Of a DNA stretch of 64,000 nucleotides, positions 24,486 through 29,170 are shown piece by piece (the first letter of the stretch is position 1; every line of letters starts with the position of its first letter). This DNA is from Candidatus Obscuribacterales bacterium (GTDB lineage Bacteria; Cyanobacteriota; Vampirovibrionia; Obscuribacterales; Obscuribacteraceae), in the NCBI GenBank assembly GCA_965228855.1, contig CBDDIJ010000002.1:960001-1024000 (forward strand). The letters are read 5' to 3'. The notes beneath the pieces are model-generated. The model had not been told where the DNA came from. It was given only the letters and a program-made list of their open reading frames with translations, and did no database searches. The position numbers and the translations under genes were made by a program.

Positions 24486-26189
24486 ATGCAGCTTGTCGAG
24501 TGCGTGCCGAATTTCAGCGAAGGCCGCGACGAAAGAATTATCAACGCAATAGCAGATGCAATGCGGAAGGTTTCAGGAGTCAGTCTTCTGGACGTCGACC
24601 CGGGTGTGAGCACGAACAGAACGGTCATGACTCTGGTAGGTGGGCCGGAAGCAGTCGTAGAAGCTGCTTTTCAGGGCATTGCCTGCGCTGCCAGTTTAAT
24701 CGACATGCGCAAACACACCGGAGAACATCCTCGCATGGGCGCCACGGATGTTTGTCCTTTCGTTCCGGTTGCGGGTGTGACGATGGCTGATTGTGTGAAA
24801 CTTGCAGAAAAGCTTGGTGAGCGCGTCGGAAAAGAGTTGGGTATTCCGGTCTATTTGTACGGTGAAGCCGCCCGAAAAGAAGAGCGCAAGAGTCTCGCGG
24901 ACATTCGTAAGGGCGAGTACGAGGCGCTGCCAGAGAAGATGAACGATGCCGGGTTCAAACCGGATTTCGGTCCTGCTAGTTTTAACGCTGGCGCCGGCGC
25001 CACCGTAATTGGTGCGCGGCAGTTTTTAATCGCCTACAACGTCAACCTGAATACGAAATCGAAGAAGTTGGCAAACGAAATCGCGTTGACCATTCGAGAG
25101 GCGGGTCGTTCTAAGAGAAACGCCGAAGGCGCGATCGAACGTGATGCGGAAGGCAAAGCGGTAATGGTGGCAGGTACATTGAAATCGTGCCGTGCTGTTG
25201 GTTGGACTGTCGATGAGTACCGGCGAGCGCAAGTTTCAATCAATTTGATCGATCCGTCGGTGACATCATTACATCATGCTTTTGATGAGGTTGTGCGTGT
25301 GGCGGACGGGCTCGGGATTCGGGTCACCGGCAGCGAAATCGTAGGGCTTGTGCCGCTCGGTCCGATGCTGGAAGCTGGTCGCCATTATTTGAAAAAACAG
25401 AATCGCTGCACCGGTGTTTCAGAAGAGGAACTTTTAGAAATAGCGGTTCAGTCGCTGGGACTGGCTGAGTTGGCTCCTTTTGAGCCCAAAAAGAAAATTA
25501 TCGAATATACTGTGGCACCGCAGGCGGTGAATCTTCGTGACATGACGGTCTCGGCCTTCATCGACGAGTTGGCGTCCGAATCGGCTGCGCCAGGGGGCGG
25601 AAGCGTTGCTGCCCTGGCTGGTGCAACTGCTGCGGCATTGACTTCAATGGTCGCTTGTTTGACGTTCGACAAAAAAGGTTTCGAAGCGCAAAAGCCGGTG
25701 ATGAATGATTTGGCGGAACATGCGCAGAAGCTGAAGGCGGAGTTGGTTCGCGCGGTTGATGATGATAAAAATGCGTTCAATAGCATCATCGATGCCAGGC
25801 GCATGCCCAAAGGCAATTCCGAGGAAATCGCTCGCCGGGATCAAGCAATTCTCGATGCGAATAAACATGCCACGCTCGTTCCTCTGCGCGTGATGAAGGT
25901 CTCAGCCAGCACTTTTGACCTGATTGAGGCAGCGGTCGAGAAAGGAAATCCCAATTCCTTGAGCGATGCGGGCGTGGCTGGATTGATGGCGCTCGCGGCG
26001 ACGGAAGGGGCATACTACAACGTTCTCATTAACCTGGATGGCTTTGATAAAGCCGATAAGGGGCAGAGTGAATTCGTCAAGGCAACTGAGAAAGAGGCGA
26101 GCGACGTGATGGAAAAAGCGCGGCAGCGAGCGGAGAAAGTGCGCAAGGCTGTTTTACAGAGATTGTCTCCGCAGGTTTCTCTTGCGTAA
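24486..26189 (+). CDS. ftcD: glutamate formimidoyltransferase / formiminotetrahydrofolate cyclodeaminase
   Basis: LVECVPNFSEGR, GEHPRMGATDVCPFVP, APGGGSVAA, GNPNSLSDAGV. Confidence 0.95.
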   Translation: MQLVECVPNFSEGRDERIINAIADAMRKVSGVSLLDVDPGVSTNRTVMTLVGGPEAVVEAAFQGIACAASLIDMRKHTGEHPRMGATDVCPFVPVAGVTMADCVKLAEKLGERVGKELGIPVYLYGEAARKEERKSLADIRKGEYEALPEKMNDAGFKPDFGPASFNAGAGATVIGARQFLIAYNVNLNTKSKKLANEIALTIREAGRSKRNAEGAIERDAEGKAVMVAGTLKSCRAVGWTVDEYRRAQVSINLIDPSVTSLHHAFDEVVRVADGLGIRVTGSEIVGLVPLGPMLEAGRHYLKKQNRCTGVSEEELLEIAVQSLGLAELAPFEPKKKIIEYTVAPQAVNLRDMTVSAFIDELASESAAPGGGSVAALAGATAAALTSMVACLTFDKKGFEAQKPVMNDLAEHAQKLKAELVRAVDDDKNAFNSIIDARRMPKGNSEEIARRDQAILDANKHATLVPLRVMKVSASTFDLIEAAVEKGNPNSLSDAGVAGLMALAATEGAYYNVLINLDGFDKADKGQSEFVKATEKEASDVMEKARQRAEKVRKAVLQRLSPQVSLA

Positions 26190-27345
26190 CTTCTCGCGTT
26201 TGAAAGAAAAAGTTAAGACGCATTTCGCGTCGAGCACCGCTTTGCTGTCGGTAAGTCTGGGCCTGGCGATCCTTTCTCCGTGCCTTGTTTCGTGTGTTTC
26301 ACAGGAGGCGACTTCGGAAACCAAAGCGATAAAAAAGAAGAAAAGAAAGAGAAGTAAACCGGAACATGAGGATATGCTGGCTCCTCCGAACATGACTCTG
26401 GGTGAGGCGACGCGCAAGTATATTCCGGCTTCTCGTTTCAACGAGGGCACGCCATTGACCGATGCTGATTATGTCAGAGCCGCGGAGGTTGCGATCCATC
26501 AAAGGGATGACGGCAGTTCGATGATGCTGGCTTCGGAAGCGATTCGGCTTAATCCAAAATCCGCTGCAGCGTATTATGTCCGAGGGCGAGCGCGGTATGG
26601 TGGTTTGGCGGATGGTGAGAAGTCCTCGATTGATGACTTGAAGCGTTCTGTTGAACTCGGTTTGGGAGGGCCGAGCACGGCTGGTGCATGGCATAGCCTT
26701 GCTCGGGCTTATGATGCCCAGAAAGACGTTCCACGCGCGATCGAGGCGATCGAAGAGGCGATAAGGCTTCGTCCGGAAGATCAAGCTGCGTACAGAACAA
26801 AGGCTGCCATTCTTACTGCTAACAACAGGAAACAAGAAGCAATCGGCGCTTACTCGATGGCTCTTAAACTGAAGCCGGAAGACGCGGAAATGTACTTCCA
26901 GCGCGGGCAGTTATTTGAGAACCTCAAGCAATTTGATGATGCGTTGAAGGACTATGAAGGAGCAATCGTTCATGGTCGAGAAGGGAATCAGATGCCTTAC
27001 AAGTTGATGGCTTTGAAGCGTGAAGCCTCGATCTATTCACAAGATGGGAAATTTCAGAAAGCCGCGGATGTCCTTTCCATCGCCATCTCCATGGACAAAT
27101 TCGACGAGGAATTGCATCGCTTGCGCGGTGAGGCTTATGAACGGTTGCACAAGTATGCAGAGGCGGTCGCCGATTATTCGAAGGCAATCGAGATGGCGCC
27201 GGACTTTTCGCAACACTCCTACGAGGCTCGCGCCCGCTGTTACGAGAAACTGGGAAAGGTCGATCTTGCTGCTGCAGATTTGAAAGAGTCGAAACGTCTG
27301 ATGGACGCACCGGCCGAAAAACCGCTATATGAGCTAAAGCATTAA
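26182..27345 (+). CDS. TPR repeat protein, probably exported
   Basis: N-terminal hydrophobic segment and multiple TPR consensus repeats. Confidence 0.85.
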   Translation: MRNFSRLKEKVKTHFASSTALLSVSLGLAILSPCLVSCVSQEATSETKAIKKKKRKRSKPEHEDMLAPPNMTLGEATRKYIPASRFNEGTPLTDADYVRAAEVAIHQRDDGSSMMLASEAIRLNPKSAAAYYVRGRARYGGLADGEKSSIDDLKRSVELGLGGPSTAGAWHSLARAYDAQKDVPRAIEAIEEAIRLRPEDQAAYRTKAAILTANNRKQEAIGAYSMALKLKPEDAEMYFQRGQLFENLKQFDDALKDYEGAIVHGREGNQMPYKLMALKREASIYSQDGKFQKAADVLSIAISMDKFDEELHRLRGEAYERLHKYAEAVADYSKAIEMAPDFSQHSYEARARCYEKLGKVDLAAADLKESKRLMDAPAEKPLYELKH

Positions 27346-27658
27346 GGCTGCCAGAAACGGCAAACTACTATAAGGAATCGTGTGGAGTGAGTTCCCGAAA
27401 CGTCATGGGGGAGATGCTTTCGCCCCCTGGGGGCTGATCGCGAGAGGTGTTTGTCTACGATACGTAGCCGGAATTTCGGGAAAGCGTCATAGCCACGTAG
27501 CCAAGTCGGGAAATTCGGAGCGTCACCTTGGTCGAGAGTGCTGCAAAAGCCGATGGCACAACGAGTTGTGGGCGTACGGAGATATGAAAGTATATAGTAG
27601 GAAGATTTGGCTACGCTACGTAGCCGGAATTTCGGGAAAGCGTTGTACGTTAGAGATT

Positions 27659-27893
27659 GACAGCAGACCCAATCAATTGACACCAGGTCCTGCTGTCGGC
27701 AAGGCTATCCGAGGACGCGAGGATAGAGAAACGGAAGAAACCAGGAAAAAGCGTATGACCGCGAAGTCAGGCTATGAGGTTTGGACTTCCGTTTCTGTCT
27801 TGTCCTCTGAGGCTGAACACTATCAGATGCAAATCCTAGAACGATTTAGCATGCGTACAAGGCTCGCCCTGACAAGATTCTATCCGCGTCCTG
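27659..27893 (+). ncRNA. IS110 bridge RNA (target-binding and donor-binding loops); boundaries approximate
   Basis: 5' hairpin 27659-27697; guides GAAAAAGCGT (27745-54), GGCTATGA (27770-77), ACACTATC (27817-24) and CGTACAAG (27854-61) match target and donor halves. Confidence 0.88.
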
Positions 27894-27925
27894 TGTAGGT
27901 TGGCAAGTCTAAATGGAGGCGCATC

Positions 27926-28891
27926 GTGATATCACTTGGGATAGACATCTCTAAAGAGACTGTGGATTGCTATCTGCTCTCGGAACGAGGGCGGAAGTTG
28001 CACGCTGACAACTCTGACAGCGGATTTCGGCGAATTGAGAAGTGGCTGAATCAGCACACCGAAAGCGAAGTACAAATTTGCATGGAGGCCACTGGAAAGC
28101 TCTGGGAGCCACTCGCAGAATACTTCTGCGACAAAGGTTTTGCCGTCAGCGTCGTCAATCCTGTTCAGATCAAAAACTTTGGCAAAAGCCTGTTGAAGCG
28201 TTCAAAGACGGACGCAATTGATGCCGAGGTAATCGCACAGTTTTGCAAACTGATTCAACCGAAGACCTGGACGCCCCTCCCGGACGTGGTCCGGAAGATT
28301 CGCAACATTGAGCGTCACATTGATGCGCTCAAGACCGACCGAACCAGAACCGTGAATCGTACCGAGTCCGGTCGGCTCGACGAACCTGTGAGTATCTCGC
28401 TTCAGCGGCAAATCGAATTCATCAACAATGAGATTTTGCTGCTGGAACAGGCTCGAGACCTCTTGATCAAGTCCGAACCGCAATTTCAGAACGATCTCGC
28501 CTTACTGCAAACCATCCCTGGAGTCGGTTTGATCTCGGCACTCACGTTTCTCACGGAAATTTCCGGCTTGGATTCCTTCGAGTCGTTGAGAGAAGTCGAG
28601 AGCTACTGCGGCTTGACTCCGGAATTGCGCGAGTCTGGAACTTCTGTTCGAGGGCGTCCGAAGATGTCTAAGAAAGGCTGCAAGCGCCTCCGGAAAGTTT
28701 TCTACATGGCGTCTCTGAGCGCAGTTCGATCAAACCCTGCCATTCAAAAATTCGCGACAAAGTTGGCAGAGAAGTGCAAACCAAGGAAAGTCATCTTGTG
28801 CGCCGCCATGCGCAAGCTACTTCGCATCATGATGGCGATCTACAGGACAAAGACACCATTTAATCCCAATCATCTAAGCGTTCATTGTTGA
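27926..28891 (+). CDS. IS110 family DEDD transposase/recombinase
   Basis: GIDISK, MEATG, KTDAIDA, IPGVG, ESGTS, AAMRKL motifs; GGAGG RBS. Confidence 0.97.
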   Translation: MISLGIDISKETVDCYLLSERGRKLHADNSDSGFRRIEKWLNQHTESEVQICMEATGKLWEPLAEYFCDKGFAVSVVNPVQIKNFGKSLLKRSKTDAIDAEVIAQFCKLIQPKTWTPLPDVVRKIRNIERHIDALKTDRTRTVNRTESGRLDEPVSISLQRQIEFINNEILLLEQARDLLIKSEPQFQNDLALLQTIPGVGLISALTFLTEISGLDSFESLREVESYCGLTPELRESGTSVRGRPKMSKKGCKRLRKVFYMASLSAVRSNPAIQKFATKLAEKCKPRKVILCAAMRKLLRIMMAIYRTKTPFNPNHLSVHC

Positions 28892-29170
28892 CAGCGAACA
28901 CACTATCTCATAGCCACGTAGCCAAATCGGGAATTTCGGAGCGTTACCTTGGCCGAGAGTGCTGCAAAAGCTGATAGCACAACGATTTGTGGACGCGTGC
29001 GGATATGAAAGCATATAGTAGAGAGTTTTGTCTACGCTACGCTGCCGGAATTTTGAAAAAGCGTCATGCCTACGCCGCCAAATCGGGATTTAAAGGCCTG
29101 GGCTTTTGAGAGGAAACCCCGTAAAGGCTCATCTGGGCTTTGATTCTGGCGAAGAGGATATATGCTGCCG

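Follow-up and report, generated by a model that had tools for sequence, protein, structure and literature searches.

The locus described here raises the question of whether an IS110 element that interrupts an array of palindromic repeats follows the published IS621 model of bridge recombination, in which an identical core dinucleotide is present in the target, the donor and both inserted ends. The locus lies in the window, i.e., the whole 64,000-nt stretch of DNA from a Candidatus Obscuribacterales genome that was analyzed. The element, termed IS-A, has four copies in the genome, with 99.8–100% identity, and its boundaries were fixed by comparison of these four copies. The element and its gene are as follows.

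27644–28908, + strand: IS110 element IS-A, 1265 bp.
27926–28891, + strand: IS110 recombinase of 321 aa, with D7, E54, D96, D99 and S237 aligned with the DEDD and serine positions of IS621.

Both IS110 Pfam domains are found above cut-off in the open reading frame, and the only PDB matches of the translated sequence are IS621 (the best, E 4.6e-50) and ISCro4 (9t56, E 8.3e-47). The recombinase is 34% identical to that of IS621 and retains the catalytic D/E/D/D/S positions. The non-coding ends are unequal, with 282 nt upstream of the coding region on the left and 17 nt on the right, and no end-to-end inverted repeat is present among the 25 longest of the 37 inverted repeats listed. IS-A is a clear IS621-group member of the IS110 family. 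The Pfam domains, the IS621 structure match and the genomic copies found in the guide-predicted site support the original prediction of a bridge recombination of IS110/IS621 type that has a target of its own. A TPR-repeat protein gene (26182–27345) is situated just upstream of the array and is without link to IS-A.

The left end of IS-A is predicted to encode a bridge RNA, whose guides can be read against the flanks and ends of the element. The roles assigned to the parts of the right target guide are by analogy with IS621 structures.

27657–27868, + strand: predicted bridge RNA (limits approximate), with a 5′ hairpin at about 27658–27698, a target-binding loop and a donor-binding loop.
27746–27754, + strand: left target guide AAAAAGCGT, ending in GT as a copy of the target core.
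27770–27780, + strand: right target guide GGCTATG, core-binding AG and handshake GT.
27817–27825, + strand: left donor guide ACACTATCA; the IS621 counterpart is ACAGTATCA.
27854–27863, + strand: right donor guide CGTACA, core-binding AG and handshake GC, the latter complementary to target positions 6–7 (GC).
27635–27643, + strand: left target GGAAAGC and target core GT (left flank).
28909–28915, + strand: right target CATAGCC (right flank).
28900–28908, + strand: left donor ACACTAT and donor core CT (right end of the element).
28888–28893, + strand: −35 box TTGACA of the predicted circle-junction promoter; the box overlaps the stop codon.
27646–27651, + strand: −10-like box TACGTT of the same promoter, with 3/6 matches to consensus.

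The motifs on which the original prediction was built are present where it had placed them (GAAAAAGCGT at 27745–54, GGCTATGA at 27770–77, ACACTATC at 27817–24, CGTACAAG at 27854–61 and TTGACA at 28888–93). The four guides (LTG, RTG, LDG and RDG) match target and donor, and guide and target change together in a sibling element, IS-B, and in other relatives. When the left end was dinucleotide-shuffled 5000 times, the individual guide matches recurred in 0.3–2.4% of the shuffles each, and at least two jointly in 0.14%; the four matches are far beyond chance. The handshake guides pair with the non-cognate positions 6–7, i.e., the donor-loop GC with the target GC, and the target-loop GT with the donor AT, the latter with one wobble.

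The 27657–27868 segment folds with a z of −3.16. A 5′ hairpin and two internal loops had been proposed for the left end; the hairpin and the target loop appear in the single-sequence fold, but the donor loop is partly closed there. Both internal loops are found in a consensus fold of 15 related left ends, in which 17 of 44 pairs show a two-sided change and the 5′ hairpin is unaligned. An Rfam search gave no real match (best E 0.85). The 5′ hairpin region contains two further TTGAC words (27657–27661 and 27678–27682), of which the second is conserved in most of the 15 relatives while neighboring bases vary. In one relative (L136, G048:C17), whose left end was not found by the pattern used, two donor-loop sequences lie in tandem about 110 nt apart, possibly a partial duplication of a bridge RNA.

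Joining the ends of the element yields TTGACA-17-TACGTT, the promoter geometry that had been proposed. Across the joined ends of related loci, TTGACN is found at the same distance in 32 of 34 and TANNNT in all 34, in a right-end search that favored a −35-like word. A linear promoter scan did not find the predicted junction promoter, as expected, because the ends are not joined in the linear sequence. Neither an end-to-end joint nor a bridge-RNA transcript was seen in the four sequencing runs covered, out of 24 listed; the raw Hi-C run gave 0 reads (2% sampled) and the RNA run only 151 nt of coding sequence.

The target of IS-A is an imperfect palindrome of about 56 nt that resembles REP sequences. 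Genome-wide it gives 442 strand hits at 222 loci in 164 clusters. Three units are present at the window site.

27450–27504: REP-like palindrome, array unit 1, with the empty target GGAAAGC-GT-CATAGCC from 27479.
27606–27643: REP-like palindrome, left part of array unit 2, which resumes at 28909–28926 beyond the element.
29027–29082: REP-like palindrome, array unit 3.

The window copy of IS-A splits unit 2 of this three-unit, 156-nt array, and the array is intact in a genome of the same genus. The sequence GAAAAAGCGT had been described as exact in unit 3 and is found there, at 29055–64. All four IS-A copies are inserted at the same position of the 222-locus palindrome family, between GC-GT and CATAGC; the three other copies, like the window copy, occupy the site that the guides predict within this REP-like repeat. 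The target specificity proposed for the element stands, but the target is a genome-wide repeat family and not just the local array. Pairing between guide and target is loose at one copy, C5:1462675 (6/9).

The REP-like hits are unevenly placed, with 83% on contig C2, often as arrays of 146–170 nt (in the window, 27443–27643 plus 28909–29082). The sequence TATAGTAG, of which the genome has 292 copies, is no more than 120 nt away in 157 of the 222 loci. A search of the 95%-complete genome for a Y1 (PF01797) transposase, as a possible mover of the repeat, gave none.

Important is the core. In IS621 numbering, where positions 1–7 are the left arm and positions 8–9 the core, the donor of IS-A reads ACACTAT-CT-TGTAC and the target GGAAAGC-GT-CATAG. 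Only the T is shared, and an identical dinucleotide in target, donor and both inserted ends is not found. The proposed IS110 bridge architecture holds with respect to guides, fold and family, but departs from the IS621 model in the pairing of a GT target core with a CT donor core. Only the left target guide tracks the target core, by ending in GT; the right target guide, whose core-binding AG suits the donor CT and not the target GT, and the donor guides are set for CT.

One explanation is that IS-A inserted into CT-core sites as IS621 does, and that left junctions or assemblies were altered later. It would preserve the published model and design rule, which presume identical cores, but is very hard to reconcile with the insertion sites. 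GT is found on the left and CT on the right in five of five separate insertions, i.e., the four IS-A copies and a copy in a sister genome (G043). Orthologous empty sites read GT followed by CATAG in three cases (the window site, C5:1462675 and the insertion of G043), which refutes a later change at these sites; empty sites were established for the GT element only, and a 9-nt pattern search for empty AT sites in five relatives added none. For C2:198470 no orthologous site was found in G043; for C5:860952, a single related unit of G043 carries GT, but it may not be the same unit. In addition, the REP core column is G in 99% of the 442 aligned strands, GT also stands at the end of the guide, and a contig of separate origin (X12, from a different study) shows GCGT joined to TGTAC. 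We regard a later change as having practically no chance of being correct.

A second explanation is that nothing is unusual, and that the junctions have been read in the wrong register, with a 1-nt duplication or none, as for ISEc21. The junctions can indeed be described as having a 1-nt T core, and according to Siddiquee 2024 (PMC11187229), in the portion available, IS110 elements are not characterized by a duplication and ISEc21 produces none on insertion. This would, however, be a different name for the same physical junction. Position 8 still differs between the partners in the IS621 register, in which the IS-A donor is one base from that of IS621 over positions 1–13 and the guide layout is identical, and the bridge design rule forbids the position-8 pairing seen here. 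A change of register is thus an improbable account. IS-A, as read from its sequence, is an intact, recently active RNA-guided IS110 'bridge recombinase' element, and it breaks the identical-core rule; the five insertions, three empty sites and guide-target covariation constitute, at the level of sequence, unusually complete natural evidence.

The left target guide displays three alleles, AAAAAGCGT in the window copy, AAAATGCGT in the copy at G000:C2:198470 (L001) and AAATTGCGT in the G043 copy (L002), and every altered base equals the flank of the copy that carries it. The G043 and window copies have 10 differences, of which 2 fall in the 9 guide nt of 1265 (P about 0.002, calculated after the fact). 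These few alleles suggest cis-acting guides that drift along REP variants, or some biased change.

Relatives were sought in 107 genomes of the order, 401 genomes of the phylum, GTDB contigs and metagenomes (80 of 259 relatives kept), which gave 131 loci. Removal of 8 duplicates, 11 loci without a 5′ end, 65 without an IS621-type donor loop by pattern and 8 without an anchored left end left 39 loci parsed with an anchored parser, 5 of them copies of IS-A and 3 copies of IS-B; 92 of the 131 loci are unparsed. A guide-flank filter on positions 1–7 only, which random flanks pass in 10% of cases, was passed by 32 loci. In these, the position-8 bases of guide and flank agree in 31 of 32, including 13 of 13 loci in which the base is not C. 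The flank/guide cores are CT/CT in 17, AT/AT in 8, GT/GT in 4, and TT/TT, CT/CG and CT/AA in one each.

Both ends could be read in 34 loci. The right core is CT in all 34, a constancy that is partly selected since the parser required a CT-type donor guide, and the left core is CT in 18, AT in 10, GT in 5 and TT in 1. Thus a CT donor is joined to an AT, GT or TT target in 16 of 34 loci, at three tree positions, with the five GT loci representing one element. The right target guide carries AG in 11 of the 12 filtered non-C loci that have a right end, and in the twelfth by eye; the parser preferred AG for this guide at similar match quality, and one row (L065) is out of register. A FastTree tree places the GT element next to IS-B, its sister of CT type (support 1.0), and groups the AT loci in one clade, with a support of only 0.745; the TT locus falls elsewhere. 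All eight filtered AT loci (L004, L005, L006, L016, L033, L036, L065 and L093) have a glycine (MEGTG) at the position of IS621 A61, and none of the 24 others does; since the AT loci are one clade, this association counts as one event. Among eight plasmid IS110 regions, both ends were parsed only in IS621 (CT/CT) and in one Deinococcus copy (CT/CT by the ends alone).

A mechanism can be proposed in which anatomy, target choice and junction asymmetry come from the sequence and all enzymatic steps are borrowed from IS621. The element would circularize, and the junction ACACTAT-CT-TGTAC would, as in IS621, form the promoter that drives the bridge RNA. By sequence, the target loop reads the bottom strand of a REP-like palindrome at GGAAAGC-GT and the top strand at CATAGCC, and the donor loop reads the junction. 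By analogy with IS621, top strands would be cut after the shared T9 and swapped, and bottom strands cut between positions 5 and 6 (9*/10*), leaving positions 6–9 as a heteroduplex that would be repaired to the top strand. The cut positions, and the mismatch repair thought to occur in the cell, are those described in Hiraizumi 2024 (PMC11208158) and PMC13626964, in the portions available. Position 8 would act like a third handshake position, joining positions 6–7, which differ between partners already in IS621. The G of the right target guide would have no pair with target G8 before the exchange, when it may be held by the protein as in IS621, and would pair with donor C8 afterwards. At positions 6–9 the guide pairs would go on insertion from four Watson-Crick and two wobble pairs to six and one, a net gain that we infer to equal that of IS621. 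The product, as seen in the insertions, has a GT left junction and a CT right junction. Re-circularization from the top strand would restore the CT donor, and the asymmetry would therefore be inherited. The left guides would pair with bottom strands and therefore must follow each partner's own base. The shared core would in reality be a single T, and the known 4-nt staggered exchange can, by this analogy, absorb a core mismatch.

A variant of the strand-exchange step should also be considered, in which only top strands are exchanged, by single-strand copy-out or by a Holliday junction resolved by host replication, without four-strand exchange and repair. It leaves the identity of the element unchanged and predicts the same junctions. 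Every junction here retains the top-strand base at position 8, and a 2026 preprint (10.64898/2026.08.31.748434), in the portion available, reports that IS621 excises mainly one strand. Against this, the structure of IS621 insertion shows the bottom strand cleaved (Hiraizumi 2024, PMC11208158, portion available). In addition, at element position 1263 of the IS-A copy G000:C5:860952–862216 (L022), donor position 7 is C and not T, and C is the target base there. This T to C change is what partial repair of a heteroduplex would give, and may be a trace of such repair after insertion; it is a single case, which a chance transition could also produce. Exchange of top strands only has some chance of being correct, but we consider it the less likely course. 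Whichever course is followed, IS-A is very probably an active bridge-recombination element of the IS621 group, and one whose joined cores are not identical.

The same genome has three copies of the sibling element IS-B, whose protein is 52% identical to the IS-A recombinase.

G000:C2:1122019–1120764, 859810–858555 and 775949–774694: IS-B copies (L026–L028).

IS-B has the ends, the donor 14-mer and the REP-like family in common with IS-A. It differs in having another target loop, in its insertion site, TTTGT-CT-ACG, which lies about 30 nt upstream of the IS-A site within the repeat, and in displaying a normal duplicated CT core. All seven copies (4 IS-A and 3 IS-B) lie inside one palindrome family, and none of them occupies the site of the other element. 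Cross-mobilization between IS-A and IS-B looks possible.

Comparison with known systems was limited to the available portions of the publications cited. IS621 of E. coli (Durrant 2024, PMC11208160; Hiraizumi 2024, PMC11208158) is similar to IS-A in its DEDD and Tnp serine recombinase, left-end bridge RNA, order of guides and handshakes, −35/17 nt/−10 junction geometry and REP target. The donors, ACACTAT-CT-TGTAC in IS-A and ACAGTAT-CT-TGTAT in IS621, are also close. IS-A differs in its GT target core and CT donor core, where an IS621 copy read in the same way is CT/CT, in its 7-nt right target guide with a core-binding G mismatched to the target, in its target-loop handshake (GT, versus AT in IS621), and in its REP family and host, Candidatus Obscuribacterales. 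ISCro4/IS622 (Perry 2025, 10.1101/2025.05.14.653916) likewise has a 14-nt target and donor and handshake guides, but its authors filtered site pairs for identical cores, whereas those of IS-A are naturally non-identical. ISPpu10 (10.64898/2026.03.19.712850) is also an IS110 element in a palindromic REP and tolerates non-canonical guide pairs, but its CT core is duplicated at both ends. ISEc21 (Siddiquee 2024, PMC11187229) resembles IS-A in being of IS110 type, with an upstream guide RNA, a junction promoter (predicted in IS-A) and no 2-bp duplication, but belongs to a different, longer transposase cluster and is described there outside the core/handshake frame.

The identical core is firmly built into published work, as far as the available portions of these sources extend. 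In tests of non-CT cores, target, donor and the four guide positions were always altered jointly, the bridge-RNA design tool rejects non-identical cores (CoreMismatchError), and the boundary pipeline defines cores as repeated sequences, with CT preferred (Durrant 2024, PMC11208160). CT:GT cores have been used as 'orthogonal' and removed cross-products (2026.04.29.721476), and the core requirement is explicitly named as limiting where bridge recombinases can be targeted (PMC13396178, PMC13604230). The first core base is described as less conserved, and A61 as a core-contacting residue in IS621 (Hiraizumi 2024, PMC11208158). In the available part of Supplementary Data 2 of Durrant 2024, position 8 differs in about 17 of 170 pairs, in four blocks, in a count made by eye over index pairs 86–255 of 5,485 that assumes that the indices pair; the trait is therefore latent in published data. 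In the literature within reach of the search, which lay outside the Science versions of the ISCro4 work and the bioRxiv supplements, no remark on mismatched cores was found. The sole match for 'core mismatch' was a methods sentence on bases beside the core (PMC13626964), and the word 'core' is absent from the available text of the CazIS110 preprint.

The identical core is thus a rule of the published IS621 model, and not strictly of the IS110 family. Natural CT donors joined to GT, AT and TT targets show that the rule is not absolute, and the natural mismatched-core elements supply the guide layout that permits the mismatch. A broader proposition is that the T at position 9 is all that the two partners of a bridge recombinase must share, with target position 8 open to any base by a change in the left target guide and in no other, and with G retained in the right guides to receive the donor C after strand exchange, a three-base handshake for which nature has used A, G and T targets several times; its prospects seem to us evenly balanced. 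If true and transferable to IS621 or ISCro4, one fixed CT donor would be placeable at any NT site, pairs of genomic sites would need no common core, and CT/GT 'orthogonality' would be set by guide design and not by the DNA cores. The junction base also serves as a marker for the surviving strand, which bears on the question of copy-out versus cut-out. In the genome itself, IS-A and IS-B form a natural pair, programmed differently but with one donor and one repeat in common.
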